From a virus, in IMG/VR virus record IMGVR_UViG_3300044653_000098, positions 32,001 to 96,000 of that record: 64,000 nucleotides of DNA; one strand, written 5' to 3'. Under the pieces are notes generated by a model. It worked only from the letters and a program-made list of their open reading frames with translations, made no database searches and was not told the DNA's origin. A program made the position numbers and the translations under genes. Positions 8,362 through 46,146 of this stretch are shown here, one piece after another (positions within the stretch are counted from its first letter, which is position 1; each line of letters starts with the position of its first letter).

Positions 8362-8375
8362 CAGAGAGTGAAGCG

Positions 8376-8666: not shown

Positions 8667-8680
8667 CGGGTATATAGATC

Positions 8681-9112: not shown

Positions 9113-9118
9113 TCCCGT

Positions 9119-12100
9119 GTGGCCCTGTCCAGTGTTGAGCTGACGCTTGATGTCTACGGTGGCTCTGGTCAGTCCATCACGCAGGGCACGGCGTTCTTCT
9201 CCCCCACGTCCTCCCTGACCGACACCACAGATCATGAGTTCATCTGGCAGACCCCCATCCCGGTGGCGCTGGAGCCTCCGGAAGGTGCAGCTGAGGACTG
9301 GCTGCCGACGGTCAGCCTGTACTCGACGGATTCGACCAACCTGAGCCCGGCTGGCTGGGCATGGACCGTCACCTTTGATGCTCCAGGAGCCCCGGAGCCG
9401 TTCAGTTTCTTCCTGCCGTACTCGGCCGGCGGCAGCCAGTACCTGTCCGAGCAGGCTCCGTATTACACCTCCCCGGTCCTCTACGGGTACATCCCGCTGC
9501 CGCCGGGCACACCGTCCGCCGGGCAGGTTCCCACCGCCACGGGCGTGGGGTCGGAGACCGTCTGGGGAGCGACCGGCTCGACGGGGCTGCCGCTTCCTGC
9601 GGGCACGGCTCAGGCCGGGTACGTGCCTGTAGCCACCGGGGCTGGCTCGGCCTCGGAGTGGTTCCCCGGCGCAGGACTCGCGCCGCTCGGCGGCAGCGGC
9701 GACGACACAGCTAACATCCAGGGGCTGCTCAACCTTGGCGGCATGGCCGCCCTGCAGGCCCTGAGCTTCAACTTCTCGGCCCCGCTGACCGTGCCGACCG
9801 GCGGCGGGATTACCTGCCCGATCGTGGCCCAGTCGTTCGGTGACCCGGGAGCCAACTACGGGATCGGCGGCCTCGCGCTGCAGGGCTGCATCCTCAAGGC
9901 GTCCTCCTCTTTCGCCGATGCCAACTCCTCGACCGGCTGCATCGTCATGACCTCCCCGAACGGAGTACAGGGCGGAGGCCAGCGGCTGGAGGGCATCAGC
10001 CTGGACCTGTCGAACACGCCCAACGGCAACAACCTCCACGGTGTGCTGGTCCAGAACAACACGGCCTGTGTGACTCTCCGGGACGTCACGGTCTACGGCG
10101 GCAACGCCCAGCTCGGGGGCGACTGCCTGCATGCCGTGGCTTCGCTGTACCAGCCCCCGGACCTGCTGAATATGGCATTCTGCCACTTCGTCGGCGGGAC
10201 CGGCGGCGTGACCATGAGCGGGGTTGCTGACACCTACGTCACGGCGTGCGAGTCGACGGGCAACAAGAACTACGCCTGGAACATCATCAACGGGAACAAC
10301 ACGAGATTCCTCGGCTGCAAGGGCGAGACCTCGAATGCCGGGCCCGGCTGGCTGTTCACCGCTGACTCAGGCTTCACTGGCGTGGTTCACCTCGCGCTGT
10401 GCACGAGCCAGAGCAACTACGGGGATGGGTTCAAGTTCACGGGGCTGGGAACCGGCACTTACCAGCTGATCGCCTGCTCCGATGATGGCTCCGGGGTCAA
10501 CGGAGGCTCTGGCGGTGGCAGCTACTCGGGGCTGAACGTCACCAGCTTCTCCGGCACGGTCGAGGCTACCGGCTGGAACACGCGGGTCAGCTCGGCTACG
10601 ACCAGCCCTGAGTATGGCGTGTCCATGACCAGCAGCAACACGCTGATCCTGACCAACGCCAACCTGGCTGGTGCGACCTCCCTGATCCATAACGGTGGCG
10701 GGAACATCAGCCTGCAGACTCCGTACAGCGGCCCGGGCCTGGCGCCGAGCGGGGACATCACCGGGGCTACGGACACAGCGGCTCTCCAGGCTGTGCTCAC
10801 CGCGGCCCCGGAAGGCAGCACTGTTTACCTGCAGGGTGGCATCTTCTACACGAATGCGCCGATCATTCACCCGCCGTGGGTGACCGTCATCGGCAACGGT
10901 GTGGTGCTCAACAACAGCTACCTGTCCGACAACCCCACAACGATCAAGCCGGTGGCTGCCTGGGCGCAGGGCAGCGCCGCAGTCGCCGCGGTCTGGCTGT
11001 CTGTGGACCAGACCACGGGCGGCTACGCGGCGGCGAGCGCGGGCCAGCAGCTCATCGGGGTCAACATCGATGGCTCGGCCGCCCCCTCCTCTGTGGACGG
11101 CTTCGACGTTTACGGCAACGTCGGCGGCGTCCAGATGGCGTATTGCTCAGCACAGTCGGTGACCGGCGGTGGCTTCAACTTCCTCTCCAGGTCCGGGAAC
11201 ATCCCGGACGGCCTGCGCCTCATTGGTCTTATGTCGGCCCGGGCCACCGGCAACAACTTCTTTTTCCAGGCCGCGGATGTGGTCGGCCACGACCTGCATG
11301 CGATCGGCAGCAATGCCGGTGACGGGTTCCGGATCATCACCTGTGCTAACAGCCACTTCTCGGACTGCCGCAGCGGCAACAACGCCGGGCACGGATGGAA
11401 CTTCGGCAACGGCACCGGCAGTGCGGCGCCGACCGGGTACATCTCGCTGCAGAACTGCAACAGCCAGCTGAACACCGAGGATGGCTGGTACGTCGACTGG
11501 ACGTCGGCTAACGGCGGCCACGTGCTCAACATGTCCGGCTGCACGTCGATCGGGGACGGAAACAACGGCGGCGCGGGCGGCGGCTCGTTCGGCGCGCTGA
11601 CGATCGTGCAGTCGACCGCGCCGATCCTGATGGACAACTTCGTCGTCATCAGCAACACCGGCACCGGGAACTGCCCGCAGTACGCGGTGAAAGCCACCAA
11701 CTGCGCCTACCTGCTGATCCGCTCCGGGATGCTCCAGGCATACAGCACCGTCTTCTACAACGGCGGGTCCAACGGCACCATTCTCATCGACCCCGGTGTG
11801 CTGACTGGCACCGGCTCGCCAACGGCACCGTCGTGGAACCCTCTCCCGGCAACGCTCAGCCCGGAGGCCCTGCCCTCCGACCACGGGTTCCTGGCGTGGA
11901 ACCTCGATCCGATGAAGGCGTCCGGCACCGGTCTCATGGTGTCCGAGACGCAGTACGTGCTCGGGGTTTTCATCCGGTCGCCCATGCTGGTGACGCACGT
12001 AACCATGGAGTCCACCGCGGGGGCGGCCGCGACCGGGTTCGTGGGTGCCGGCCTAGGTCTCTGCAGCTCTGCTGGCACGCTTCTCTCCGGCAGCGGCACG

Positions 12101-19574: not shown

Positions 19575-20516
19575 ATGGAAACCTACACGTTCGCCGACCC
19601 TGAGCTGTCCCCTCTGCCCATGAAGTGGGTCTGGGACGGTTACATCCCGCGGTACTGCATGACGGAGGGGTACGGCGAGGGCGGGACGATGAAGGGCCTC
19701 GGCATTCAGAGCATCATCGCCCTGATCACCCTCGGTGCGGACATGCCGGACGGCAGCCTCAACGGGTTCGGTGGTCCGCGCACCGTGATCAGCATCACGG
19801 GCGAGGATCTGCTGCGGCAGGGCATGGCCTGGCGCTACCGCGCGGCCGGCGCCGACACCCGCAATATCGTGGATCTCAGCAAGGACGAGAACGGCCGGCC
19901 CTTCAAGCTGAACGACGCGGGGCTCGCGCGCATCCGCGAGGAGATCGCCAAGATCAACTCTCACGAGGGCAAGTACCGGCATATGCCGGACTACGGCTTC
20001 CTGTACCTCGACCCCATGATGAGCATCGCGCCCCGCAGCGTCACCCAGAACACCACGTTCCGTGCGGTGCTGCTCGAACCTCTCGACGCGCTGTGCGCCG
20101 AGGAGGAGCTTGGCAAGGACGGCACGGGCTGCTTCCTCATGAACCACTCGACCAAGGACAAGAAGGTCGTGGCCGGCTCGGCCGCCGCAGTGCAGGGCCC
20201 GCGCATGGTTCTCGGGTTCCGCCAGAGCGACCGCAACCCGCTGTGGCGTGAGCTGTACCGGTACAAGACCAATATCACCGAGAACACCCCGGCTCCCGTG
20301 CCGTACATGGGGGAGGGCAAGGACACCAGTATCCGCGTGCGGTGGATGACGGACTCCTGGGAGCAGCGCCGCAGCGGGTCCGGTGTCCTGAGCCGGTACG
20401 GCTCGCGCGCCTCGGAGGCCATGGCTCCCGCGCCAGTCCCGGCCCCGTACGCGGCGCCCGTTCCGCAGCCGGCCAGCGTTGGCGAGATGTGGAAGAATCT
20501 CCAGTCCAGCATGTGA
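19575..20516 (+). CDS. AAA_25 / RepA-helicase-like P-loop protein with degenerate Walker A
   Basis: WVWDGYIP...GEGGTMKG; ITGED; RYRAAGAD; FLYLDP; MNHSTK...AGSAA. Confidence 0.7.
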   Translation: METYTFADPELSPLPMKWVWDGYIPRYCMTEGYGEGGTMKGLGIQSIIALITLGADMPDGSLNGFGGPRTVISITGEDLLRQGMAWRYRAAGADTRNIVDLSKDENGRPFKLNDAGLARIREEIAKINSHEGKYRHMPDYGFLYLDPMMSIAPRSVTQNTTFRAVLLEPLDALCAEEELGKDGTGCFLMNHSTKDKKVVAGSAAAVQGPRMVLGFRQSDRNPLWRELYRYKTNITENTPAPVPYMGEGKDTSIRVRWMTDSWEQRRSGSGVLSRYGSRASEAMAPAPVPAPYAAPVPQPASVGEMWKNLQSSM

Positions 20517-32771: not shown

Positions 32772-33101
32772 ATGGCAAACATCAAATCTCATGACGGCCA
32801 GGCGCACATGAGCGCCACCTACAGCAAGCCGGAAGAGACGGCCAGCCTCACCACAGACGGCAAGACGCACCTGACGCTGACCGTCACCACAGACGGCCGC
32901 TTGCTGCGCAAGACAGCTCACCGTTTCCGCTCATCACAGCGCAAGTGCGGCTACCGGCTCAGCAGCACGGATTACCGCCTCGTGACCAAGGTCAGGGTGC
33001 ATCCTTCCCGCCTCACAGAGGAATACCGGCCGCAGCTCCGCGCTGATCTGGCAGCCATAGCGGCACGGTGGGGGTATGCCCCCGACCACACGGAAGCCTG
33101 A
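32772..33101 (+). CDS. Basic hypothetical protein
   Basis: MANIKSH after leader 32744-32761. Confidence 0.65.
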   Translation: MANIKSHDGQAHMSATYSKPEETASLTTDGKTHLTLTVTTDGRLLRKTAHRFRSSQRKCGYRLSSTDYRLVTKVRVHPSRLTEEYRPQLRADLAAIAARWGYAPDHTEA

Positions 33102-33143
33102 GCACGCCCACAGACGCACGTGCTGTTAGCTCAGCTCCCAAAA

Positions 33144-33183
33144 TACGGGCCGGAGGAAAAGCACAGCTAGCCTCCGGCCCGTA
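33144..33183. terminator. Hairpin after 32772..33101
   Basis: TACGGGCCGGAGG-loop-CCTCCGGCCCGTA. Confidence 0.65.
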
Positions 33184-33240
33184 CTCATGCGCCTAGGTGT
33201 CTCCACAGCAATCCGCGCACAAGAGCTAGCTCAGCTCTCC

Positions 33241-33350
33241 AGCCCCGCACAGCCGCTCGCGTGGCCTCCGTCCCGGGCGTGCCTGTGGGCATGATGTAGA
33301 GCCGTTATGCACCCATAGCCACAGCCCGCTAGTAGCGTCTGCGCGGGGCT
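33241..33350 (+). ncRNA. Candidate structured RNA in a 350-bp intergenic gap
   Basis: Outer 17-nt stem with 2 mismatches, nested stems with G-U pairs. Confidence 0.35.
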
Positions 33351-33455
33351 GAGCTTAACGGAGACAGCCGTACAGCCCTACCCGTATGTAATCGGGTAGG
33401 GCAAACGGCAGAATCGCTCTCAGGGCCGTACAGCTACAAGCGCTGCAGCCATGCG

Positions 33456-34670
33456 TCATCTATCGCGGCGTCCGTCTTGCGGTGCTTGCCTTCCCGCGTG
33501 CCGCGCCTTCATGCCGGCCTCCCACCTGTCCAGAGCGGACAGCACGTCAGCCTGTGCAGTGAGGCTGAGTGTCGCGGTGTAGACGAGTCCGTCAATGACT
33601 ACGAGTGTCAGGCTGACATAGCACTGCGGGCACACGGGCATGTCCCCGCCACACAACTCGCTGTAGGCGGTCAGTGTGCCATCACACGGGGCTGAGCAGT
33701 TCTCACAGCTCACAAGCTCAGCCGGCGCGGTGTAGGGGTGACCCTGCCATGGTGAGTCCGGCCGGTGCGCGTTACGGCCGCACGTGGTGCAGCGCTTGGA
33801 GTTGTGAGCCCCGGACACGTCATCCTTGGCCGGCTGTGCCGTGTCCTCACGCACGGGGCGGAGGTTCGGCCACGTGTAGCCAAGCGCGTAGTGGTCGGCA
33901 CTGTGCCCGTCGGTGAAACTGCAGGTCAGACCCGGCATTCCGGGGTGCATGGACGGGCACGGCTGAGCGTTCGCGCTGGTCCGCTCTTCCGCCGGCTCGT
34001 GCCGTTCCGTGCACGGGATCACCGCTATGGAGTCCCCATCGCTGTAGTGCCGCAGCTCTTCGTGGTAGTGCAGCTCGTGCCGCTCGCTGATCTCGTCTAT
34101 GAGCGCGTTCGTGTCGGCTAGCTCCCGCGCGTCATCGGCCGGCAGCACCTCTAGCGGCTGGTCAGTGTCGTGGGGTCCGTTCATGCCCCGCGCGTCACAC
34201 AGCCACGTGCGCTCGTACTCCACGTACACCAGACGCCACGTGCCTCCGGGGGTCATGCGGAACACTGGCCGGTGACAGTAGCTGCAGGTTCCCTCTTCCG
34301 GCTTCTCAGCTCCCACAACCACAGCAGCCTGAGCGTGCCCGCGTACGCGCGCCTCTTCCGGGCTGGTCACCATGGCTAGCAGCTCATCCGCTACGTGGCC
34401 GGTCTCCGCCATGCGCACGCGCTTGCCTGAGTCCGTCAGCACGTTGCCGTTGTCCTCGTGTCCGGGGCTGAGCGCTTCCGCTGCGGCTGTGGGCACGTAG
34501 AACACCTGCAGCTCAGGGTGAGCCGTGCCAAAGATTCCAGCAAGCTCATAAGCCTGATCCCACGTGCCCGCGTAGTTCGCCGCGCGCTGGAACCGGTTGG
34601 CTGTGGGCTTGCGGTAGGCGATCGTCCATGTGGCTATGGTGCGACTCTCGTGCGTGTTGGTGCTGGTCAT
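33456..34670 (-). CDS. Multidomain protein with several Cys/His (Zn) modules
   Basis: MTSTNTH after leader 34675-34691; CSYC, CTTC, CENC, CPQC. Confidence 0.7.
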   Translation of the reverse strand: MTSTNTHESRTIATWTIAYRKPTANRFQRAANYAGTWDQAYELAGIFGTAHPELQVFYVPTAAAEALSPGHEDNGNVLTDSGKRVRMAETGHVADELLAMVTSPEEARVRGHAQAAVVVGAEKPEEGTCSYCHRPVFRMTPGGTWRLVYVEYERTWLCDARGMNGPHDTDQPLEVLPADDARELADTNALIDEISERHELHYHEELRHYSDGDSIAVIPCTERHEPAEERTSANAQPCPSMHPGMPGLTCSFTDGHSADHYALGYTWPNLRPVREDTAQPAKDDVSGAHNSKRCTTCGRNAHRPDSPWQGHPYTAPAELVSCENCSAPCDGTLTAYSELCGGDMPVCPQCYVSLTLVVIDGLVYTATLSLTAQADVLSALDRWEAGMKARHAGRQAPQDGRRDR

Positions 34671-34724
34671 CTGTGCCTCCGTTTGCTGGGCAGTTGGGTC
34701 AACCATGCTCAGGCTTTCAATGGA

Positions 34725-34740
34725 GTAGACCTGTGTCTAC
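34725..34740. promoter_or_regulatory. Variant cassette palindrome
   Basis: GTAGACCTGTGTCTAC upstream of the last cassette. Confidence 0.55.
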
Positions 34741-35253
34741 CCGTTCAGCTCCCATTGTTATCAACCTGTAACCTACCCAAACGATCAGCCTCCGTTTATC
34801 GCCAGGCGCGCTACCAGCCATGACTTACCATCCGCCGGCTAGCCCAGTACCCAAATAGATGGGTACAGCCTCCGTTTAGCTCAGCCGTTCCCATACCTCG
34901 ATAGTCCCACCCAATGGGACACCCCCCGCGCCAACCGCTGCAGCTCCCCTGTGCCCGTGCCGCACAGCTCCCCGTGCGCAGCTCTCAGCGCCACGCACAG
35001 CCGCTCACAGCCCCTGCCCTGTGTCAGCACATGGCCAGCACCGCAGCGTGCCTCTCAGCCCCGCGGGCACACAGCTCAGCTCGGCCGGTCAGCTCAGCTC
35101 CCCGCGGCCGTCCGTTCGGCTGCCCCCGTTGCCGGCTAGGCCCCCGCCCCCGCCGTGCCCGCCCCCCGTCGTGCGGGGCGATGAGGGTTAGGAGTCCCGT
35201 TCCTCCGCCCCCGCACTGACCGGCGCCTTCCATTAACAGATGCACCCGCACAC

Positions 35254-35475
35254 GTCACAGCACATCACCCGTCCCTGCGGAGCCCAGGGTTTGATGGCCT
35301 GGGGAAGTGATTGTGATGTGTGATGGGGCCCCCTGACCTGTGATAACTCCAGGAAAGGTGGTCACAGTGATGTACCGCATCACTCATGTGCCCGGATGAT
35401 GTCACATGCCGCTGACCTGGGCGCATCACTATCTTGTGATGGAGGACATCACAGCTGCCGCCAAGTGGTGTGATC
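35254..35475. repeat. GTGAT/ATCAC repeat cluster
   Basis: 11 copies in both orientations within about 215 bp of non-coding DNA, plus two CTGACCTG. Confidence 0.75.
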
Positions 35476-35769
35476 TGGCGCCTGGCCGGTAATAATGGCA
35501 GGGCGTGCCCCGGGGAGCCTGCGGAACGATGATCAGCGTCCTCGTTCCGGCCAGGACCGTTACCCCCCGGGGCCGCCCCGCCAGCGAAACGGAAGGCGGA
35601 GGCCCATGAACGTAGCTAGCAAGGTGCCGGAGCGGCCGCAGCCGCCAGCTGCACCGGGCGGATATCACCAGGAAGCTGCGCCTGATAGTGCGTGGCGGGT
35701 GATCGGGGGGCTTGCCACGATCGGGAGCAAGCGGTGCCGGGCAGGCGCGACGCGGAACAAGCGGGCGGG

Positions 35770-36363
35770 ATGAGCCGCAGGCGCCGCAGGCGCCGCAGGA
35801 GGTTCCAGGCGGGCTGGCTGAGCTGGGCGGTGCCGCTGGCCGGGGGTGTGTGGATCTGGACGTCCCTGCACGATCCTGGACGCCAGGCGGGCATGTGGAC
35901 GATCGAGGGCGCCGCGGTGCTGGCCTGGCCGCTGGCGCTGACCGCGGCGTTCTACGTGCTGCCCGCGACTGCGATGTCTGCGGTACCGAGGGGGCTGCGC
36001 AAATGGTGGCGCCGGAGCTACACCGCGCGGCCGGCGATTCCGCTGTTCATCCGCCGGGCTGTGATGTACGCCGACGCGCACCGCTGTGTGCACTGCGGGG
36101 AGTGGCTGGACCTGCAGCTGGACCACGTCTTCCCCTGGAGCCTCGGCGGCCTGAGCGTGCTGTTCAACCTGATGGTGCTGTGCGGGACGTGCAACCGCGT
36201 GAAGTCCAACTACTGGCGGTTCCGCTCGGGGCATGAGATCTACCGGGCGTTCGACAACGCTGACAACATCCGGATGGCCCGGGAGATCCTGAGGTCGGAG
36301 AAGCTGGCGAGGATCAGCCCGCTGCGGTGGTACCGGGCTTCGCTCGCGCTAGGGGTGATCTAG
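35770..36363 (+). CDS. HNH endonuclease with N-terminal hydrophobic (membrane) segments
   Basis: CVHCG...LQLDHVFPWSLGG...NLMVLCGTCNRVKSN; two hydrophobic stretches after a poly-Arg start. Confidence 0.85.
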   Translation: MSRRRRRRRRRFQAGWLSWAVPLAGGVWIWTSLHDPGRQAGMWTIEGAAVLAWPLALTAAFYVLPATAMSAVPRGLRKWWRRSYTARPAIPLFIRRAVMYADAHRCVHCGEWLDLQLDHVFPWSLGGLSVLFNLMVLCGTCNRVKSNYWRFRSGHEIYRAFDNADNIRMAREILRSEKLARISPLRWYRASLALGVI

Positions 36364-36795
36364 GTGAACTGGGGAGCGCTGGAGGCGGTCGCGGCCGGGC
36401 TGGTCACCGCCGTTGTGGTGGTTGGCCTCGTCTGGCTCTATGTGACCCATTCCCCAGCGGCCTTCAGGCACAAGGCCGACGAGCACTACCTGGAGGCGCG
36501 GGACGCGGTGCTGGCGGCCGTCAGGCACCTGCCTAAGCGCAAGGTGGTGGTCCGGTCGGCCGACGGCACGGTGTTCCAGGTCGCCCGGCGCCCTCCGCTG
36601 CGGATCTACCTGCTGATGGTCGGCTGCAAAGGCACGACGTTCAGCTTCGGCCGGGACGGCCGGGTCGACCTCGGCGGGAACCGCGGGCGGTCTCTGTCAC
36701 AGGCGATGCGGGACGGCCATCATTCGTGGGCGAGCAGGGCGGAGCTATTCAAGATGGCCGAGCAGCTGAAGACGGCAAAGCCGGTGAAGCGGTGA
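36364..36795 (+). CDS. Membrane-anchored hypothetical protein
   Basis: N-terminal TM helix; abuts HNH stop. Confidence 0.55.
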   Translation: MNWGALEAVAAGLVTAVVVVGLVWLYVTHSPAAFRHKADEHYLEARDAVLAAVRHLPKRKVVVRSADGTVFQVARRPPLRIYLLMVGCKGTTFSFGRDGRVDLGGNRGRSLSQAMRDGHHSWASRAELFKMAEQLKTAKPVKR

Positions 36796-37112
36796 TAGAC
36801 GACATGCCGCTATGCGACTGCGAGTGGTGCCTGTCGTTCCGGCCTTACCCGGAGCCGCGTTGCCGTCCTCTGCGCTCTGTGCGCATCCGCGAGCGCCGGG
36901 CACGCAGGCGCCGCTGGCTCCAGGACGCCGCGTACATGCCGCTGTGGTGCCTGGATGCCACGCTGGGCGGGATGAGCCCCTCCGTGGCGCTGACGGCCGC
37001 CTGCGGGGTTTACCTAGGTGTGCTGTTCGAGATGCCGCTGTGGCTGGTCTGCGCCATCCTGTTCGTGGCCAGCGTCCTGCCCGCGCCCCCGGATCACACC
37101 TCCCAGCAGTGA
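36792..37112 (+). CDS. Small membrane protein with CxCxxC
   Basis: GTGA overlap; C-terminal hydrophobic helices. Confidence 0.45.
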   Translation: MIDDMPLCDCEWCLSFRPYPEPRCRPLRSVRIRERRARRRRWLQDAAYMPLWCLDATLGGMSPSVALTAACGVYLGVLFEMPLWLVCAILFVASVLPAPPDHTSQQ

Positions 37113-37136
37113 TCTGGCCAGCTCAGCGGTGTGACA

Positions 37137-39176
37137 TCACTGCTGGGGCGGAGGCGGCGTCTTCGGGTACCAGCGGCCGTTCTTGCTGTCGAGCAGCTCA
37201 GCGTCACGGTCCTTGCCCAGCTCGCGCTGGATGTGCGCACGGTCGACCCCGATCCCCTCTCTCTTGAGGATCGTGAGGATCTCGCTGGTCGCGATGCCCA
37301 TCCGGGAGCGCTCCGCGATCAGCGCGTAGGCCCGCAGCTTCCACGCCGGGGCGTTGCCCTGCGGGGTGTATCCCTGGGCGAAGGTGGTCAGGTCCGCCAG
37401 GGTGTCGCCCATCATCTCCTGGAACACGTCCAGCTGGGCCCTGCGCTCTTCCTCGCGGTCGATCACCGCGGTAGCTGCGGCGCTGCGCGCCGGGGCGGCT
37501 GCGGCCGGGGGCTCGGGCGCCAGGTTCTGGAACAGCTCGGAGCGGTTCCACCGCTCGGTGTAGTCCTCGCCCAGCACGGCGAGGTCGGCCTCGTCAAAGA
37601 CCGGCCGTATGGACGAGCAGCGGGCCGCGATCCGGTCGACCTTCGCGCGGTCCTCGGGGTGCTCGTCGCCGGGGTCGAGGCGGAAGAACTTCCACACCTT
37701 CAGCTTCCGGTCACGGTCGCCCATCCGCCAGATGAGCCCGGTGCCCCTGTGCTGGAGGCGGGAGATCGCCTTGGCCGCCGGGTCGGAGTCCGGGACCGCG
37801 GACCGGGCGTCCATCTCCGTCATCTGGCCGAGAGTAATTTTCAGGCCGCTCTGGCTCTTGAGGTCGCCGGAGCCGGCCTGGGAAACGGTTGGCCGCTGTG
37901 TGGTCCAGATTGGGTCGACCGCGGACGGCCGGCCTTTCCGGGTGATGTCGTTGGCCCAGGCGACCATCTGGACGTTGGAGACGCCGGCCAGCTGCTGCTT
38001 CTCCCGCGGGGCGTCGAGCATGAAAATGTCGGCCACCTCATCGCCCACGAGCATCACCGCGGGCTTGGCCCGGCTCGGCACGAGCTTGGTCCGGTGCCTG
38101 ACGGCGTTCTCGTCCCGGCGTCCCGCCACGAGCCGGTCGGCTGCCTTGAACATCAGGTATGCCTCCGCTCTGGTGGTGGCGACCCAGTCGATGCACGGGC
38201 GCAGGCCCTTGGCCCCGTTGTTGAGTACCTCGTCGTTGATCCATGGCTGGATCCACGGTCCCGACAGCGAGCCGCCGCCGAGGTCGACGCACCAGACGAT
38301 GACGTCCTCGCACGCGGAGAACTGCGCGATCAGGACGTTGAGAAGATTGCTCTTGCCCCAGCCCCGGATACCTGTCAGGAACGTTGCTACCTCGCGGAAC
38401 AGGATGCGGCCCAGCTCTCCGATCGCTGCGACGCCGATTGGGATGGGCTTGTTGATGGTGAGGACTTCGTCGTGCTCGGGGAACAGCACGGTCTCCTCAA
38501 AGATGTCTTCCTCGTTGAGGGTCATGATGGCCTCGCCACCGTGCTTGCCCCCCTCGAAGGTGATCGCTCCCGGGTCCATCTTCAGCGGGATGCAGAGCTT
38601 CTCCACACAGGTCCGCAGGGTGTTCAGGGTGACCGAGCCGTCCGTCGGGAGGCGCAGGTACACGATGCGGTTGCCTCGTGCCTCCTCGATCTGGATGATC
38701 GAGATGTTCAGCAGGCCGATCCGGGTGAAGGCCGCGATGAGCTTGCGCCGCTCTGCCGCTGCGGCGAACGACGCCGCGCGGGTGTTCGCCTGGTGGCTCT
38801 CCATGGCATGGCGTTCCCAGACCAGGCCGCCAGCGACAATCACGGCCCCGATAACCGCGACCAGAGAGACCAACGCCGGCCAGTGCCACACGCCGGTCAG
38901 CTTCGCATACACCAGCCATCCCGGAACAGTGACCGCGACCGCTATGGCGCAAATGACGACCGAGGAGGACTTCGACCGGATCGAGATCCCGGCCGCAACT
39001 GAGCCGGAGATCACGAGTGCGAGCGCCCCCGCCGGGAAAGCGTGGATCTTGGTGAGTGCGAACAGGAACAACGCCACGCCCACAGCCAGCCCGGTCTCGA
39101 TCATGTGCGTCCACACATGACGGGGTGCCGGGTCAAGGGACTTCGCCGGGGCGGGCTGGCTGCGGGTCGTGGTCAT
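37137..39176 (-). CDS. traB: FtsK/SpoIIIE-family DNA translocase, actinomycete TraB-like
   Basis: About four N-terminal TM helices; Walker A GIRGWGKS; VWCVDLGGG; Walker B MLVGDEVAD; TTQRPT; C-terminal wHTH-like region; AGGAGG SD. Confidence 0.8.
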   Translation of the reverse strand: MTTTRSQPAPAKSLDPAPRHVWTHMIETGLAVGVALFLFALTKIHAFPAGALALVISGSVAAGISIRSKSSSVVICAIAVAVTVPGWLVYAKLTGVWHWPALVSLVAVIGAVIVAGGLVWERHAMESHQANTRAASFAAAAERRKLIAAFTRIGLLNISIIQIEEARGNRIVYLRLPTDGSVTLNTLRTCVEKLCIPLKMDPGAITFEGGKHGGEAIMTLNEEDIFEETVLFPEHDEVLTINKPIPIGVAAIGELGRILFREVATFLTGIRGWGKSNLLNVLIAQFSACEDVIVWCVDLGGGSLSGPWIQPWINDEVLNNGAKGLRPCIDWVATTRAEAYLMFKAADRLVAGRRDENAVRHRTKLVPSRAKPAVMLVGDEVADIFMLDAPREKQQLAGVSNVQMVAWANDITRKGRPSAVDPIWTTQRPTVSQAGSGDLKSQSGLKITLGQMTEMDARSAVPDSDPAAKAISRLQHRGTGLIWRMGDRDRKLKVWKFFRLDPGDEHPEDRAKVDRIAARCSSIRPVFDEADLAVLGEDYTERWNRSELFQNLAPEPPAAAAPARSAAATAVIDREEERRAQLDVFQEMMGDTLADLTTFAQGYTPQGNAPAWKLRAYALIAERSRMGIATSEILTILKREGIGVDRAHIQRELGKDRDAELLDSKNGRWYPKTPPPPQQ

Positions 39177-39185
39177 CTTGTCCTC

Positions 39186-40925
39186 CTACTGGGTCAGCCA
39201 GAGACGGTGCGCCGCGCGGTGCGTGGCGAACGCGTCGCTTGCCGCATCCCCCGTGCTGGCGAGAGCTGAGCCGTACTCCCTCAGGCTCTCGATGAACGCC
39301 GGGTGGATGTGCTCGTCCGTCATCCCGTCAGCGGCCGCCTGGACTGCTTTGCCGATCACGCTGGGCAGCTCGGCCATCCGCTTAGCCCACTGGTCCAGGT
39401 CGTCGCCGCTGGTGGGATGGAACGTGGCAATGTGGTCGTGGACGGCCTCCTCGACCGCATCAAGGTTTCCTGACATAGGGCCTCCTCTAGTTGATGGTGC
39501 TCGCTGCCTGCGCACCTGCGGTGCTTGCAGCCGGGGTGCCGGAGCGGGGGCCGACCTTGGTGCTCCCTGCGGGGAAGCTGGTGCCGGAGCGGGGTTTGGC
39601 TTGCTCTGGCGCTCCTGCTCCCGCCTGGCGCGCTCGCGCTCTCTCCGTTCCTCCCTCATCCGCTTGTTCCAGACCTCCTGCCAGCGGCGGCCAAGCTGAG
39701 CGCCGCTGAGCAGACCTGGAATCCGGCGCTGCCGGGGTTCTCCCAGCCGCGGGACCGGGCGCCATTTGCCTGGAGCCCAGTTGCCTTTGCCCTGGACTTT
39801 GCGCAGCTTGCGCCTGCGGTGCAGCTGGCGCAGTCCTGCAGCCAGGGCGATGGGAGCCAGAATCCGGTCCCGCCACCGTGGCCGCTGGCTGCGGATGTGC
39901 TGGCGCAGGGCTCTTCGCTGAGCCCTGGTCTGCTTGCGCAGTGTCCTGCGGCGCTGCCCGCGCAGCCGCCGGCCGTGGCCTTTGGCTCCAGGACCCCACT
40001 GAACCTGCGGGCCGCCTGCGGGACGGACCGCCCCTGGCTGCCGCCGCCGGAGCCTGGCCGGGACGAGCTTTCGCAGTCTCCTGCGTGCCCGCCCAGGCTT
40101 AGGCGTGCTGCCTGTCGGGATGCCCGGAGGCCGTCCGCCAGCTGGCCGCAGACCGCGGCGTCCGCGCACCCGCGGGCGGCTGCCCGTGCCTGGCCGTGCG
40201 CCTGAGCCTCCAGCAGTCCGGGGACGGTGCGGGATGAACCGCCTGATGCCCCCTCGCGGACGGCTGGCGGTACCCGGGCGCCGCCCGCCTCCTGGGCGCC
40301 CGCCCGCCGGGCGTGAGCCCGCTGGACGGTGTGGCCGGTGCGGCAGGAACCTCCGCATGCCACGACGTGGGCCGCCCGCACCGGTTCCTGTGCCGGAGCG
40401 CCGTCGACCCGCGCCCGGACCAGTTCCCGAACGGCGCCTTCCGCTCCCCAGACCGCCGCCTGGGGACATAGTGCGCCTGCGCGAGCGCCCGGACGATCCG
40501 GAAGCGCCTGACCCGGAGCGCCTGCCCCGTCCCAGGCCCAGACCGCCGCGCCCTGATCCGCCGCCGGATCTCCGGCCTCCGCCCGCACTGCCGCGCGAGC
40601 GGCCGCCTCCGCCGAGCCTCGGCAGTACCCTCCCGCCCGAGGACCGGCTGCTTGAGCGCCGCTCCCTGCGGGACGAGCTGCCCGGAGGCCGTGCGAAGTG
40701 CTTCCGGATACGCGGGTACTGCCAGATTCCGGCTGCCCCGGTCCCGGCTGCCCCGGTCCCGGCCGCTGCCATCTCCACCGGGCCTGCGCCGAAACCGTGG
40801 ACAGCTCCGACCACGGCCGCGATGCCTCCCAGCAGATAGAGAATCGGCCTGCGGCCCCGGACATGCCCCGGGCGTTCCTGCGGGCCTGCACGCGGCTCTT
40901 CATCGAGGGTCTCTTCATCAGCCAC
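39186..40925 (-). CDS. TraA-like protein: TM helix, long Arg/Gly-rich tract, helical C-terminal domain
   Basis: AGGAGG SD, overlaps upstream stop, immediately upstream of traB as in actinomycete plasmid tra operons. Confidence 0.55.
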   Translation of the reverse strand: MADEETLDEEPRAGPQERPGHVRGRRPILYLLGGIAAVVGAVHGFGAGPVEMAAAGTGAAGTGAAGIWQYPRIRKHFARPPGSSSRRERRSSSRSSGGRVLPRLGGGGRSRGSAGGGRRSGGGSGRGGLGLGRGRRSGSGASGSSGRSRRRTMSPGGGLGSGRRRSGTGPGAGRRRSGTGTGAGGPRRGMRRFLPHRPHRPAGSRPAGGRPGGGRRPGTASRPRGGIRRFIPHRPRTAGGSGARPGTGSRPRVRGRRGLRPAGGRPPGIPTGSTPKPGRARRRLRKLVPARLRRRQPGAVRPAGGPQVQWGPGAKGHGRRLRGQRRRTLRKQTRAQRRALRQHIRSQRPRWRDRILAPIALAAGLRQLHRRRKLRKVQGKGNWAPGKWRPVPRLGEPRQRRIPGLLSGAQLGRRWQEVWNKRMREERRERERARREQERQSKPNPAPAPASPQGAPRSAPAPAPRLQAPQVRRQRAPSTRGGPMSGNLDAVEEAVHDHIATFHPTSGDDLDQWAKRMAELPSVIGKAVQAAADGMTDEHIHPAFIESLREYGSALASTGDAASDAFATHRAAHRLWLTQ

Positions 40926-41691
40926 TAGCCACCTCCTGTGCCATTCCTCGTGCTGCTGCCAGCACCTGCCTTGCGATGTGACGACTGCTCAGGCCGTACG
41001 CTTCGCGGAGCCCCCGCTCAGTGAAGCTCGTGCCCTTGCGGATTTCCTTGGAGATTTCTTGCACGAGCTGGCGCATCGCCGGGTCGGTGTCGAGCTTCGG
41101 CTTCGGGCCGCGCTTCGCGTTGATGCTGACCACGTTCTTCTCGCGCTGCTTTTCGGTGTGCTCGGTCACCACCACCGGGCGCTTGGGCTTCGGCTGCCTG
41201 CGCAGCTCCTCGGCTGCCTTGGCCTTGGCCACCGCGTCCTTGACCAGCCCGAGCCCAATGCCCAGCGCGATGGTGGCGACGAGCGGCGCAACGGCGCTGC
41301 CCAGCTTCACGACGATTCCGGCGTGCAGCCCGTCGTGCACGGCGTTTCCCAGGATCGATACCGTCAGTGCTCCGGTCGTCACGATCCATGCCCAGCCGCG
41401 GGTGCGCCACCGGGTGTCCCCGCGCAGAGCGCACAGGAACAGCCGCAGCTCCCCCAGGGCAATGAGCCAGTCAATTATGATGGGATAGCCAGCGGCCCAG
41501 GGCTCGTGAAGATGAAGGTAGTTAATAGCGAGAGCGAACAGGCCCCGGTAGGACTCCCCGAAAGCCCACGATGTTGCCGAAATGATGATTACTGTCAGGC
41601 CCCACATGGTAATGGGGTCTGCGCGCTGAAGCGCCTTGCTCAGGTTGCCTGCGTGTGCAGCTGCGCGGAACCTGGTCATCCTGCCGGCCAT
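40918..41691 (-). CDS. DUF2637 (Spd-like) membrane protein with C-terminal HTH
   Basis: AF.ESYRGL..LA...YPIIID...SILGNAVH...AVAPL; TERGLREAYGLSSRHIARQV; AGGAGG before ATG 41691. Confidence 0.75.
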   Translation of the reverse strand: MAGRMTRFRAAAHAGNLSKALQRADPITMWGLTVIIISATSWAFGESYRGLFALAINYLHLHEPWAAGYPIIIDWLIALGELRLFLCALRGDTRWRTRGWAWIVTTGALTVSILGNAVHDGLHAGIVVKLGSAVAPLVATIALGIGLGLVKDAVAKAKAAEELRRQPKPKRPVVVTEHTEKQREKNVVSINAKRGPKPKLDTDPAMRQLVQEISKEIRKGTSFTERGLREAYGLSSRHIARQVLAAARGMAQEVASG

Positions 41692-41875
41692 CCCGGACCC
41701 TCCTGGGTTCGTAGTCGGGTGGTTACAGCTCTCGGTGCGAGTTACTGTAGCCATAACGATTGTGGAACGCGATTGTTCCTGCGTATGCTGGCCTGTTCGG
41801 TGTTTGCCTTTGACACAGTGCTGGCCCTCGCCATTTAGATGGACGCACTTATGCCGCCGTCGCCGTGGCCTGCCG

Positions 41876-42271
41876 ATGAACGCGGTCATGGACAGGAACC
41901 TAAGCCGTTTGCTCCAGACGGGGCACTCGATTCCCGCAGATCTCCAGCAAGACGACACCGGCCCGCAGGTAGACGCGGCGGCGGCCGGGTGGGCACGGGT
42001 GCGCCAGATCCGCGGTACACAGGCCGATCCGAGGATGCCCCGCGAGCAGACTCCGTCCCCGGAGCCGGGGCAGCCGCCGGTCAACCACGCGCTGAGGCAG
42101 TTCCTGGCCACCGGCTCCTCGGCACCTCCGAGTGTGCGTGCCACCGGCCGCACGCCGCAGGCTCCCAGCGAGGTGCCGCCTGCCAAGGATGACGGCCGGT
42201 GGACCGGCCCCGGTTCAGCAGCGGCCGCGGTCCCGGTTGGCCTGGAGCAGGCGATGGGGCAGGACCGGTAG
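41876..42271 (+). CDS. Pro-rich hypothetical protein
   Basis: MNAVMDRNLSRLL..., divergent from the tra operon. Confidence 0.4.
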   Translation: MNAVMDRNLSRLLQTGHSIPADLQQDDTGPQVDAAAAGWARVRQIRGTQADPRMPREQTPSPEPGQPPVNHALRQFLATGSSAPPSVRATGRTPQAPSEVPPAKDDGRWTGPGSAAAAVPVGLEQAMGQDR

Positions 42272-42607
42272 CCGCCCCGTATAAGGTGCAGGCGCGGCTC
42301 CTGGCTTCTCTTGACCGGGGTTGTCTGGGAGCCGTGCCGCAGATGTCTCAGGCACGACAGCTGTCCCGTGCCCCTCCTGGGAAGGGCACGGTCCCGAGCC
42401 CGGAGTCTGAGACGCGGAGACGAGGGAGGGGCCTTTAAGCAGGTCCCCTGTAGGTCCCTCCCGACTCTCGGCGCCGGAAGATCACGACTTGGCACCTCCC
42501 CTTTTTGCGGTCTTGTCATTTTCTGGACACGACCGGTAGCCTCCAGCCGATAAGAGACGCCCCTGAGGCGCAGGTCACTGGTCTTGCACCTCGGCTAGGG
42601 GGCGTTC

Positions 42608-42949
42608 ATGAATGCTGCTGCGAAGGTCCGGCATGAGCCGGCCGTCTACTTCGTCACCGTCCTGGGCACGCTCGTCGCGCTCATCGTGGCGTTCGCCCAC
42701 CTCTCCCAGACCGATGCCGCCTACCTCGGCATGCTGGTTACCGGGCTGGGCACGATCATCACCGCCCTGCTGGCCCAGCCGCGCCACGTCGCGGTCATCG
42801 GCGGGGCGGCCGCTGACATCCTGCAGTCCCTCGTGCTGTTCAAGATTCACATGAGCAGCGGGGAGCAGGCCGCGATCCTCCAGGCGGTGGCGCTGCTCAC
42901 TGGCTACCTGGCGATGCGGCCGAACCTCACGCCCGACCACAGCGACTGA
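42608..42949 (+). CDS. Holin-like membrane protein
   Basis: 113 aa, about four hydrophobic helices, RHEPAV start and RPNLTP end as in actinophage holins. Confidence 0.55.
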   Translation: MNAAAKVRHEPAVYFVTVLGTLVALIVAFAHLSQTDAAYLGMLVTGLGTIITALLAQPRHVAVIGGAAADILQSLVLFKIHMSSGEQAAILQAVALLTGYLAMRPNLTPDHSD

Positions 42950-42973
42950 TCCGGGCGGAGCGGGGACCAGCAC

Positions 42974-43702
42974 ATGATGTTCATCGGTGGTATTTGCGTT
43001 TCCCAGGAACAGGCCGTCCATGCCCTCGACGTCCTGCGCGAAAGCCCTGGGATGATGGTCCGGCAGCCTCTCCAGCGGGCCGGGAACCCGCTGGCGGCCT
43101 GCGACTACCACGCGGCCGCAGCGCCGTACCGTTCCCGGCCCCAGGATGTGCCTGCGGCCGGCCGGGGCGCTGCCGGGCGGCACCTGACCAAGCCCGCGTT
43201 CGTGCTCGCGGTTGAGACAGCCCTGGCCCTCGACCGCCAGGCGGACGAGCGCAAGGCCGAGCTGGAGCGTGCGGTGGCTGCTCTGCAGCCACCTGTGTCC
43301 CGCGAGGATGTCGACGCGGCCATGGCAGCCTTCGCCGTTGATTGCTCTTACGTGACCTCGATGGCCAATAACGCCGTCGCGGTCCTGCGCAAGCGCTACG
43401 CCACGGGCCGGAGGTTTGCCCTCCGCGCGGCCTCCCAGGCGGCCGTGGCGCTGTGCTCCAGCCGTCCGGGTGCGTTCCGGTGCGCCGCGGTCGCGCCGTG
43501 CGGGACGGGAGACTGCAGGCTCGCCCGCGGGGTGCTGGCGGGGCTCGACATCCCGGCCGGCCGGGAAGCACGCGGCCCGGCGCTGGCCCGCCCGGGCAAC
43601 CATGTGGCGGCCGGGGACCGGTTCGCGCCTGATGTCATGCTCGACTCGCTGCTGGAGCGGCAGCCCTGGATCGCTGGCGGGGGTTTGTCTGTCGCCGTAT
43701 AG
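42974..43702 (+). CDS. Hypothetical protein sharing a domain with 55354..56499
   Basis: IGG...ALDVLRESPGMMVRQPLQRAGNPLA. Confidence 0.6.
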   Translation: MMFIGGICVSQEQAVHALDVLRESPGMMVRQPLQRAGNPLAACDYHAAAAPYRSRPQDVPAAGRGAAGRHLTKPAFVLAVETALALDRQADERKAELERAVAALQPPVSREDVDAAMAAFAVDCSYVTSMANNAVAVLRKRYATGRRFALRAASQAAVALCSSRPGAFRCAAVAPCGTGDCRLARGVLAGLDIPAGREARGPALARPGNHVAAGDRFAPDVMLDSLLERQPWIAGGGLSVAV

Positions 43703-43824
43703 TGACCGGTGCCTCCAGCCATCGCGCTGGGTGGCGGACAGCCCAGCAGGCGAGCAGGGCTGATGAAGCAGAGGGCCGGGGCCTACCGTGATCCCGGCCC
43801 TCCTGCATCTCCTATGCTCTCCCG

Positions 43825-44466
43825 GTGCCTGAAGTCCCTACCCTGCGCGAGAAGTGGCCCTCCATCCTGGCCACAGTGATCATTGCCCCAGCATCAGCGT
43901 GGCTGCTGAGTTTCGCCGGGGTGGCCGGCACCGTCACCGGGATCGCCGTCGGCAGCGCGCTGTCGGGCACGGCCGGGTCGGTGGTCGAGCGGTGGATCCG
44001 GCTGTCTCACCAGGCAGCCGCCCGCAAGCTGACCGAGCACAAGGCAGCATCCGCCCACGGCCGCCAGCCTCCTGCGCATGCGGAGGTGGAGGATCCCTGG
44101 GAGAGCTACTACCGGCCGGGCACGGCGGTGCGGCGTTTCGACATCCCGTGGCGCAGGGCGGCGCTGTGGGCAGCAGCCGCCATCGTGCTGTCCGGAGGAT
44201 CGGTAGTGGTGGCCCAGGCGGTCAGCCACCGTTCGGCCAGCGATCTGGTGCGGGGGATACCGGCGCGGCGTCGACCAGTGCCTGAGAACACGGTTGCTCC
44301 CGTTCCGTCCTATTCTCCGTCACCTTATGTAAGCCCTACGCCGGCCGTGACCCCCAGCTCATCACCCTCCGTCACGCCCAGCCCTTCGTCGTCGCCTTCC
44401 CCCACACCGGTCCCCTCCTCCACCCCGACGCCGGTCATCAGTCCGTCTCCGATAATCCCGGAGTGA
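43825..44466 (+). CDS. Membrane protein with Pro/Ser/Thr-rich tail
   Basis: Three hydrophobic segments; SPSP/TP repeats; TATGCT-N6-GTG. Confidence 0.65.
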   Translation: MPEVPTLREKWPSILATVIIAPASAWLLSFAGVAGTVTGIAVGSALSGTAGSVVERWIRLSHQAAARKLTEHKAASAHGRQPPAHAEVEDPWESYYRPGTAVRRFDIPWRRAALWAAAAIVLSGGSVVVAQAVSHRSASDLVRGIPARRRPVPENTVAPVPSYSPSPYVSPTPAVTPSSSPSVTPSPSSSPSPTPVPSSTPTPVISPSPIIPE

Positions 44467-44497
44467 GGATCGTCGCTGATCTGACGATGGCGCGGGC

Positions 44498-44941
44498 ATG
44501 AATGTCGTCACGGCGCCTGACCCGCGCTCTGCGCGGCTGCCGGTCCGGAGTCTTCTGCTCATCGCCGCGCTCTGCGTGCTCGCGGTCTTCTACACGATCC
44601 ACATGCGCCAGTGCCAGTCCGAGGCGTGGCGGATCATCGGCTCGCGCGACCCCTCCGGCGCTTGGTACGGGTTCTGGTCGGGGCTGGGCGGCTCGCTGCC
44701 GGACATCGCGCTGTTCACCGGGGTGACGGCGTGGTATCTGCACCACACCTGCCATATGAGCCCCTGGTGCCTGCGCTGGGGCAAGTTCGAGGCTGCCGGA
44801 GGGGTGTTCAGGCTGTGCCGTCACCACCACCCAGACATCGACGCGCTGAAGCATCTCTCGCGCCGCGACATGATTCACAAGCTGCACCGGGAGCACCTGG
44901 ACCGGACCTCTCGCAGAGCGCCGGCCAAGCCCAGGGCATGA
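44498..44941 (+). CDS. Membrane protein with Cys/His motif
   Basis: WYGFWSGLGG; CHMSPWCLRWG...LCRHHHP; ATGA overlap with the channel gene. Confidence 0.65.
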   Translation: MNVVTAPDPRSARLPVRSLLLIAALCVLAVFYTIHMRQCQSEAWRIIGSRDPSGAWYGFWSGLGGSLPDIALFTGVTAWYLHHTCHMSPWCLRWGKFEAAGGVFRLCRHHHPDIDALKHLSRRDMIHKLHREHLDRTSRRAPAKPRA

Positions 44942-45294
44942 ACGGCCACCACAAGGCCGCGCTCGCGACGATCTCGGCCTGCTCGGCCCTCACGATGCTG
45001 TGGGGCTGGCTGTTCTCGCTGGCCGAGCAGCTGCCGGCCACCACCGGCCTGTACTGGTCGGTGATCACCGCGGCGACCGTCGGCTACGGCGACGTGATCC
45101 CGCACAACCCGCTGGGCCGGCTGATTGCCGTGGCCGCCGCCATCACCGCGATCCCGCTCTACTCGGCCAGCGTCGGCCTGTTCATCGGGGGAGTGGCTGC
45201 CCGGGTCATCCACAACGTTGTGCACGATGCCAAGACCGAGATCAAGGACCATGTCGAGGAGCGTCTGCGGCATCATCTGCAAAACCGCATGTAG
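44938..45294 (+). CDS. Minimal two-TM potassium channel (KcsA-like)
   Basis: 118 aa; TM1, GLYWSVITAATVGYGDVIPHNPLGRLIA, TM2. Confidence 0.88.
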   Translation: MNGHHKAALATISACSALTMLWGWLFSLAEQLPATTGLYWSVITAATVGYGDVIPHNPLGRLIAVAAAITAIPLYSASVGLFIGGVAARVIHNVVHDAKTEIKDHVEERLRHHLQNRM

Positions 45295-45364
45295 CCTGCG
45301 CGTTCGCCTGCGCTGGGCACCTCACCTGCGGTAAGTTCACCGCGCAGCCTCCGGAAGGGACGCC

Positions 45365-45970
45365 ATGAGCAAGCAGCTGGGCCGCCGCGACGCACTCCGG
45401 ATCGAGGCGCTGCACGCCGCGGTCGCTTTCGCGGCCTCGGCTGAACCGGAGGTAGTGCTGCTTGCAGTAGCCGACGACTGTTTCGGCTGGCTCGTACGGC
45501 ACGAGACGGAGAAGCTCGCCGTCTCCGTTAAGGTGACCCGTCCCGATGGGACAGTCGCATTCACCGCCCAGCTCACCCAGTCAGCAGGAGAAGGGAACAC
45601 GCCGCTCATGACCGCTATGTTCGACGCAGACACCGCCACCATCACTATCGAGCCGGAAGACTCGATGAACCAGCCGACCGGCGACAGCCTGACCGTTGCG
45701 CAGAGCGACAACGGCACGCCGACGACCGGCGGCGCCCCGGCCACGCCTGGCACGATCGCCAACGTCACCTACACCACCGACGACAACGGCGCGATCACCG
45801 ACGTCACGGTCGCTCCGGTGGCCACGGGCTCGGTCACGATCACGGTGTCGGACCCGAGCGCGCCGGGCGTGGCCCCGTTCACCAACACCTTCGACGTCGC
45901 TGCGGGCGCAACTGCGTCGCTGGTCGGCGCCGTCACGGTCAACGCAGGGGCGAACTCGCCTTCTGCCTGA
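45365..45970 (+). CDS. Thr-rich protein with Ig-like C-terminal domain
   Basis: VTVAPVATGSVTITVSD beta pattern. Confidence 0.55.
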   Translation: MSKQLGRRDALRIEALHAAVAFAASAEPEVVLLAVADDCFGWLVRHETEKLAVSVKVTRPDGTVAFTAQLTQSAGEGNTPLMTAMFDADTATITIEPEDSMNQPTGDSLTVAQSDNGTPTTGGAPATPGTIANVTYTTDDNGAITDVTVAPVATGSVTITVSDPSAPGVAPFTNTFDVAAGATASLVGAVTVNAGANSPSA

Positions 45971-46146
45971 TTTACCGGACGATGCCCAGGACGTGAGCCC
46001 TGAGGCACGTGCCGGCGCAGCCGGGAACTGGCGGTCCTTTCCTCCTCTGGTCCGCCAGTTCGTCCGGCCGGCGCGCTTTCATGACCCCTGATCTGCTCTC
46101 ATCTGGGCATAGAGGTGCCCGATAGCAAGCCACCGGTATAAGAGAC

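Follow-up and report, generated by a model that had tools for sequence, protein, structure and literature searches.

A three-gene operon related to actinomycete plasmid transfer regions in the genome of a 142-kb tailed phage

Why should a tailed phage carry a set of genes resembling the DNA transfer region of an actinomycete plasmid? The question is raised by three adjacent minus-strand genes at positions 37137–41691 of a 64,000-nucleotide (nt) stretch of viral DNA, here called the window, which corresponds to bases 32001–96000 of the IMG/VR virus record IMGVR_UViG_3300044653_000098 (141,724 bp, 66.8% G+C). An earlier reading of the letters without database searches (below, the sequence-only reading) described the locus as a conjugative module of the type found in plasmids and in the integrative and conjugative elements of actinomycetes (AICEs), and proposed that its carrier may spread both as virions and by transfer across septa or between hyphae, and might in this way escape defences at the receptor level. 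Judging by homology, we find that the operon is very likely an intact, phage-resident copy of an actinomycete plasmid-type double-stranded DNA (dsDNA) transfer module.

The three genes are translationally coupled, with ends that overlap or nearly abut (Table 1), and direct reading of their starts and ribosome-binding sites (RBS) bears out the tight operon with AGGAGG before each gene that had been noticed from the letters. They encode a DUF2637 protein (gene 1), an Arg/Gly-rich middle protein (gene 2) and a TraB-like ATPase (gene 3, hereafter the pump).

The pump possesses four N-terminal hydrophobic or transmembrane (TM) helices (aa 19–123) forming a membrane anchor, an FtsK-type alpha/beta motor at approximately aa 159–555 with intact Walker A (GIRGWGKS, 269–276) and Walker B (VMLVGDE, 374–380) motifs, and a C-terminal winged helix (aa 611–671, nt 37164–37346). 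The latter is folded as H-H-H-beta-beta in an AlphaFold2 (AF2) model, with pLDDT of 86–93 against a mean of 81 for the whole protein. Foldseek ranks TcpA, a coupling protein, and the FtsK motor highest (E about 1e-14), and the protein matches PHROG 31069 (E 6.5e-34). The membrane ATPase with a winged helix-turn-helix (wHTH)-like tail, as first read from the letters, is thus upheld by the predicted fold. A sequence search against solved structures gave no match, NCBIfam yielded nothing useful, and blastn of the operon region found no match among deposited phages.

A profile hidden Markov model (HMM) was built from the pump and its 29 closest relatives. It matches plasmid proteins over nearly their full length: those of NZ_CP054917 (322 bits), the pZL12-like NZ_CP109240 (310 bits; a terminase gene lies 5 kb away), Frankia pFQ12 (298 bits), NZ_CP108173 (207 bits), pSQ10 (195 bits), pADI95-16c (173 bits) and pZL12 (pZL12.71c, 137 bits). 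Two phage proteins, Hiyaa gp102 and P1312 gp63, score 222 and 218 bits, respectively. In two genomes of the putative host lineage, the paralogs of FtsK and EccC type reach only 18–39 bits, against 137–322 bits for the plasmid transfer proteins, so the profile places the pump with the latter. In a quick maximum-likelihood tree, five phage-type pumps form one clade (SH-aLRT 100), sister to three metagenomic sequences; this group stands next to a 20-member clade with chromosomal copies, while plasmid and other phage proteins occupy neighbouring clades. FtsK and EccC fall on a long separate branch, and the Tra protein of pIJ101 on a very long one, too divergent to place.

The motor fold itself is shared with chromosomal FtsK/SpoIIIE, EccC/EssC and TcpA of pCW3 (Foldseek E 1e-14 to 1e-9; TM-score 0.72 on the target FtsK 6t8b_C). 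EccC differs in possessing three ATPase domains instead of one, and the pump has another N-terminal membrane part than these proteins and partner genes of its own. Among septal DNA-moving pumps, SpoIIIE and SffA provide a model for an alternative role in segregation, in which the phage protein would hold or move phage genomes at division or sporulation septa and so sustain a carrier state in spores or daughter compartments. The resemblance of the motor to chromosome-segregation pumps speaks for this, as does the use that another persistence route would have for a phage in which integrase, serine recombinase, ParA and ParB were not detected. The authors describing Thermobifida phage P1312 also read their copy as a DNA-segregation protein, and actinophage records give no other role (PMC4569894). 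We consider segregation unlikely: the pump scores far higher on plasmid Tra proteins than on FtsK paralogs, it travels with plasmid-type partner genes, and the sequence carries no hint of sporulation control.

The partner genes extend the likeness beyond the ATPase. The gene 2 protein has one TM helix (aa 27–47, nt 40785–40847), followed by a disordered region of about 410 residues rich in Arg, Gly, Ser and Pro (aa 71–483, nt 39477–40715) with a net charge of about +106; residues 71–330 comprise 73 Arg and Lys versus a single Asp or Glu, and 68 Gly. The composition agrees with the TM/Arg-Gly-rich second protein of the sequence-only reading. An odd codon-position GC profile in this gene is explained by the Arg and Gly codons, which give such a pattern, and the long frame is also open in the sister phages L014, L004 and L072. 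In L014, public gene calls (8357–9541 and 9703–9990) split it into a 394-aa product in an overlapping alternative frame and a 95-aa product; the conserved reading there is a single 546-aa frame, and high-GC, Arg/Gly-rich genes are prone to such mis-calls.

The last 96 residues of the gene 2 protein form an acidic, helical domain, which we call the companion domain. BLAST recovered it at 37 loci, in more distant relatives, as a stand-alone gene of 95–114 aa immediately upstream of a pump gene. An HMM built from the stand-alone copies matches the C-terminus of the protein encoded upstream of tra in every plasmid examined (pSQ10, pFQ12, pADI95-16c, NZ_CP108173, NZ_CP054917 and NZ_CP109240), as well as pZL12.72c (35.9 bits), P1312 gp64, the stand-alone Hiyaa gp101 and proteins of three further IMG/VR phages. 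The middle proteins of the six listed plasmids resemble gene 2 in layout, with an N-terminal TM helix, a Gly-rich polybasic stretch (between +27 and +49 net charges in 150 residues) and the companion domain; some of them differ in carrying two companion domains. Among 1.84 billion proteins, the family comprises 728 cluster representatives at E<=1e-3, with the domain either stand-alone or C-terminal. The Pfam family PF28214, "TraA-like", is a tentative lead for the companion domain (Atlas score 0.77).

Gene 1 encodes a protein matching Pfam DUF2637 (PF10935) with 27.7 bits against a cut-off of 22.8 (29.4 bits in a genome scan); sister-phage copies score 24.1 and 20.0 bits, and orthologues are 41–82% identical. 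The AF2 model, of low confidence (pLDDT 60 overall, 72–82 in the C-terminal domain), contains four long helices at approximately aa 26–165, a basic linker and a three-helix, HTH-like C-terminal domain (aa 199–256, nt 40924–41097). The DUF2637-like multi-TM protein with an HTH, proposed from the letters, is thus supported by both profile and model. A tblastn search with this protein found no match among deposited phages. SpdB2 has been described as a partner of TraB that has four TM helices, binds DNA and forms pores (Thoma et al. 2015, PMC4447253), and the modelled architecture of gene 1, four TM helices and a DNA-binding part encoded next to a pump gene, appears to match this description.

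An exact parallel in arrangement is the linear plasmid NZ_CP108173 of Streptomyces sp. NBC_00147, in which a DUF2637 protein (128 bits) with a C-terminal HTH, a middle protein and a protein annotated as "DNA translocase FtsK" follow each other in the same order as in the phage. Because the companion domain, layout and gene order are common to the plasmids, homology holds for the whole module and not for one ATPase. The plasmid proteins are longer than those of the phage: 581 aa for the DUF2637 protein, 520–810 aa for the middle protein and 710–840 aa for the pump. Plasmid triplets of this kind are annotated just as hypothetical proteins or FtsK, and we found no study of them in the literature.

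The operon is carried by a tailed soil phage whose genome is complete. Genes for terminase, portal, protease, major capsid and tail proteins, for two helicases (DnaB-type and SNF2-like) and for a DNA polymerase of family A were all found (Table 1), in agreement with the intact tail genes and replisome noticed earlier on the contig; virion genes and a tra-type locus therefore share one genome. The first 183 nt of the record recur at its end (1–183 and 141,542–141,724, one mismatch), so the sequence closes on itself, either as a circle or through short terminal repeats; IMG/VR classes the record as linear. Over the full 141.7 kb, a search that did not include plasmid Rep families gave no match to tyrosine integrase (PF00589), serine recombinase (PF00239, PF07508) or ParB/ParA families (PF02195, PF13614). 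The sole plasmid-like hint elsewhere is an AAA_25 ATPase. Given the array of 30 tRNA genes and the absence of a detected integrase or partition gene, a virulent lifestyle fits. The host is probably a filamentous actinomycete; relatives sit in 5–10-Mb genomes labelled Streptosporangiaceae or uncultured Actinomycetota.

Since the record was assembled from a metagenome, part of a plasmid or AICE might have been joined to a phage contig by mistake; we found no other point in favour of such a chimera and consider its probability practically negligible. A 22.9-kb Logan contig from the probable source run, produced by a different assembler from the same data, covers 33000–46000 with zero differences at a flat depth of 25.5. 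Near-identical pieces bridge the gene boundaries in three other soil runs, contigs from other samples show synteny on both sides, and the overlap of the record ends also argues against a chimera. The assembly is thus not chimeric.

Three sister contigs from other samples (139.4, 140.5 and 132.5 kb) carry the same operon, with pump identities of 89%, 53% and 90%, respectively (range 53–91%). The operon occupies the same position, flanked by a shared HNH endonuclease gene at one end and, at the other, by a small divergent gene, a holin and a helicase that are likewise shared, and all three open reading frames (ORFs) are intact in the four sister genomes. The ratio of nonsynonymous to synonymous substitution rates (dN/dS) against the closer sisters is 0.29 for the pump, 0.32–0.43 for the middle protein and 0.40 for the DUF2637 protein. 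AICEs combine integrase, replication initiator and Tra in one bounded element; here no integrase was found genome-wide and no integrase or att-like boundary around the operon. Together with the synteny, this agrees with the earlier remark that the locus does not look like a freshly inserted AICE, and the operon appears to be inherited within a lineage of 132–142-kb siphophages without detectable integrase or partition genes.

The same comparison bears on whether the genes are a passenger, a piece of plasmid or AICE that was picked up recently and plays no part in the life of the phage. Such a passenger would suit an accessory-looking minus-strand segment lying between the tail and the lysis/replication modules, with flanks that vary among the sisters: 36362–37092 is missing from the 89% sister L014, which has another, 94-aa gene instead. 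We nevertheless hold it very improbable, since the ORFs are intact and at the same place in all four sister genomes, even where pump identity has fallen to 53%, their dN/dS is below 1, the leader is near invariant, the GC content at third codon positions (GC3) of the pump gene (0.89) fits the phage, and no integrase or att-like boundary was found.

Several observations weigh against a conjugation-like transfer function. The dN/dS values of 0.3–0.4 are rather relaxed. The Pfam model FtsK_SpoIIIE (PF01580) matches the pump below threshold (E 0.15), so that its family call rests on PHROG 31069, the fold and the plasmid Tra profile matches; as pIJ101 Tra is also not detected by the pump HMM, the pump is a distant relative of the classical TraB proteins encoded by small Streptomyces plasmids. 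SpdB of pIJ101 has neither a DUF2637 nor a companion HMM match, so that the DUF2637–SpdB2 link is a putative one, drawn from architecture and from the Pfam note. As the chief weak point, no cluster of clt/TRS-type repeats, known from TraB/Spd plasmids (the clt has repeated motifs of 7–9 bp), was found in or beside the pump gene; 8-mer clustering over the whole genome gave coding repeats only, namely the Arg/Gly region and, as the sole other strong cluster, a QGNPF repeat protein. Finally, the closest non-phage relatives (31–40% identity) lie not on plasmids but in chromosomal cassettes of a companion and a pump gene. The two cassette loci annotated with Pfam have ordinary metabolic neighbours and no mobile-element genes within 10 kb, and for this reason the pump family need not be tied to conjugation.

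These cassettes occur in metagenome-assembled genomes of uncultured Actinomycetota/Streptosporangiaceae (L015–L049, e.g., L015:9673–11908 and L016:9660–12163) and encode a 114-aa companion protein and a pump of 620–800 aa. Their flanks are mostly unrelated, except in one syntenic group of six genomes, and in one family they are present in 17 of the 151 sampled genomes (16/150 without the unpublished genome G129). This shows that pump and companion together form an accessory, mobile unit of the likely host lineage, with room for roles other than conjugation. Some chromosomal pumps are larger (1010–1180 aa; L041:7866–11189, L042:7893–11432) and contain a LAGLIDADG-type insertion (PF14528 on P0029), suggesting a putative intein in the ATPase. 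In G003 and G004 the pump gene is broken across frames, and these copies are possible pseudogenes.

One such role would be competition or exclusion, with the module acting on foreign or host DNA as a host-takeover or exclusion function: expelling or blocking incoming plasmid or phage DNA, mobilising resident elements, or importing host DNA out of adjacent compartments as a nucleotide source. The sporadic distribution of the cassettes (17/151, G129 included) resembles that of accessory or defence-like genes, the PHROGs category is "moron, auxiliary metabolic gene and host takeover", PADLOC gives a weak match to mad8 (19.8 bits), and both the sister phages and contig L017 have an HNH nuclease gene adjoining the pump. 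The mad8 score is, however, far below the membership level, PADLOC gives no match for either the companion or the DUF2637 protein, and at the level of the module the homology is to plasmid transfer regions, making this explanation decidedly unlikely in our view.

How would a transfer module work in a phage? By analogy with published TraB proteins, gene 3 would form a membrane-anchored, hexameric FtsK-family pump or channel, its C-terminal winged helix would select the DNA to be pumped, and the motor would drive dsDNA across a membrane or cross-wall. From its architecture, the TM-tethered polybasic arm of gene 2, cytoplasmic by the positive-inside rule, may gather or neutralise DNA at the channel; the companion domain, which strictly co-occurs with the pump, may dock on it; and gene 1 may perform an SpdB2-like role. 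Replicating phage DNA would then be pumped into neighbouring compartments or hyphae of a mycelial host, providing virion-independent local spread. The idea of such spread for phage SpdB2 homologues was already voiced in 2015 (PMC4447253).

We regard a transfer module serving local spread as the best overall explanation, with about an even chance of being correct. The use of the module for virion-independent spread of phage DNA, taken as a separate claim, is tentative, and we lean slightly against it. A bolder version, in which a virulent, integrase-less large siphophage employs a plasmid-derived TraB module as a "movement" system that pumps replicating genomes across septal walls or contacts between hyphae, so that one adsorption infects a whole mycelium, is rather doubtful; under it, the companion domain would serve the pump family as a universal adaptor, whether in a phage, a plasmid or a chromosomal cassette. 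If spread of this kind is real, neither plaque formation nor host range in mycelial actinomycetes would be governed by virions and receptors alone. Phages would have a second route of transmission in common with conjugative plasmids, with a bearing on gene flow in antibiotic-producing soil bacteria, and a movement system would be the bacterial analogue of the movement proteins of plant viruses. What is gained in any case is a defined three-part module, with a TM–polybasic arm–companion layout common to the phage and plasmid versions, for which phage Hiyaa and pZL12 offer culturable stand-ins.

A plasmid-type module in a phage genome is already on record for pZL12, and similar modules exist in Hiyaa and P1312. 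pZL12 is a Streptomyces plasmid which reportedly also forms lytic virions (PMC3583192, PMC5431353), and whose transfer is reported to need the main tra gene together with a pair of neighbouring genes (PMC3583192); we assume that the latter are 72c and 73c. Like our phage, pZL12 (phage ZL12; GQ919031) has a tailed-phage genome with a same-strand order of membrane protein (73c), large middle protein (72c) and FtsK-like protein (71c). It differs in its size of 90 kb versus 142 kb and in its plasmid life with ParA, ParB and an integrase/recombinase, none of which was detected in the phage. BLASTP aligns the two pumps over only 105 residues at 30% identity, and 73c, unlike gene 1, is not recognised as DUF2637.

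The better-studied Streptomyces TraB/Spd systems (TraB and SpdB2 of pSVH1, Tra and SpdB of pIJ101, TraA and clt of pWTY27) share with the phage a translationally coupled operon. The Tra protein of pIJ101 has the same general plan as the pump, with an N-terminal membrane part, an FtsK_SpoIIIE motor and a C-terminal MarR-type wHTH (MarR_2 match), whereas in gene order pIJ101 differs, tra coming first, and no companion-domain protein was found in it.

Other actinophages encode FtsK-like translocases with 22–28% identity to the pump (tblastn): Streptomyces phages Hiyaa, Spocter, Galactica and Keanu, P1312 (gp63) and Saccharomonospora phage PIS 136. The stand-alone companion of Hiyaa (gp101) and the C-terminal companion of P1312 gp64 are both encoded directly upstream of the pump, as in gene 2, and gp98 of Hiyaa, a membrane protein, weakly resembles DUF2637. 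Hiyaa also lacks a tyrosine or serine recombinase match, like our phage, while P1312 possesses a serine integrase. All these actinophages belong to other lineages, with genomes of 60–95 kb.

Two conserved non-coding segments lie near the operon. The leader upstream of gene 1 contains blocks that are near invariant in the four sister phages (41698–41707, which holds the RBS, 41721–41730, 41744–41778 and 41805–41818; about 100 nt), in contrast to the coding DNA, where identity drops to about 67% between the two most distant of them. From this alignment, we infer that the leader is a putative promoter, operator or other cis site. The second segment is a 132-nt intergenic block between the small divergent gene and the holin-like gene, likewise kept in the four sisters. 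In single-sequence folds it forms two strong hairpins at about -70 kcal/mol, and L004 and L072 show changes that appear compensatory; Rfam has no match for it and only chance-level matches over 41600–42700. The block could be a pair of terminators without T-tracts, a regulatory element of the lysis genes or a cis site of the pump. At the other end of the operon, the perfect inverted repeat is probably a bidirectional terminator, also without a T-tract; a promoter/terminator scan of the E. coli type called nothing, this repeat included.

The HNH endonuclease gene adjoins the 3′ side of the pump gene in the window as well as in L014 (12445–13029) and L004 (12133–12729), and an HNH gene is found beside the pump in the more distant 76-kb contig L017 (11902–12453). 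The adjacency may reflect a recurring association or a homing element. Between HNH and pump genes lie two small ORFs of 143 and 128 aa, the second with three "MPLW/C" repeats encoded by ATGCCGCT. The three copies of ATGCCGCT (36800–37042), the sole repeat found locally, were considered as a clt-type site and rejected: they encode the protein repeat and lie in a stretch that the 89% sister phage lacks.

Table 1. Location of the operon, its surroundings and other genes of the phage (window coordinates unless the record is named).
Feature	Position	Strand	Remarks
Gene 1, DUF2637 protein, 257 aa	40918–41691	-	ATG; AGGAGGG upstream
Gene 2, Arg/Gly-rich middle protein, 579 aa	39186–40925	-	GTG; AGGAGG upstream; overlaps DUF2637 stop by 8 nt
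Companion domain of gene 2 (aa 484–579)	39189–39476	-	own internal GGAGG and ATG
Gene 3, TraB-like ATPase, 679 aa	37137–39176	-	ATG; its AGGAGG overlaps the upstream TAG
Non-coding leader upstream of gene 1	41692–41818	-	four-way sister-phage alignment
Perfect 12-nt inverted repeat, 22-nt spacer	37102–37147		covers gene 3 stop, between convergent genes; repeat search
HNH endonuclease gene	35692–36363	+	
Two small ORFs	36364–37112	+	
Small divergent gene	41876–42271	+	
Conserved intergenic block	42332–42463		
Holin-like gene	42608–42949		adjoins the operon region
Minor tail protein, 1881 aa	2716–8361		
AAA_25 ATPase	19575–20516		
DnaB-type helicase, SNF2-like helicase, family-A DNA polymerase	46–63 kb		
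Tape measure (2433 aa), Dit, fibre/minor tail proteins	record 25–46 kb		
Gln/Pro-rich protein, 483 aa	record 96,379–97,830		64379–65830 in window coordinates, just outside
tRNA array, 30 genes	record 120,048–123,804 (L009:12048–15804)	+	outside the window
Terminase, portal, protease, major capsid genes	record 128–140 kb		

The tail proteins of the phage are very long: besides the minor tail protein listed in Table 1, the tape measure protein (L007:7163–14464) includes an endolysin-like segment. The Gln/Pro-rich protein encoded just beyond the window contains four "QGNPF" repeats.

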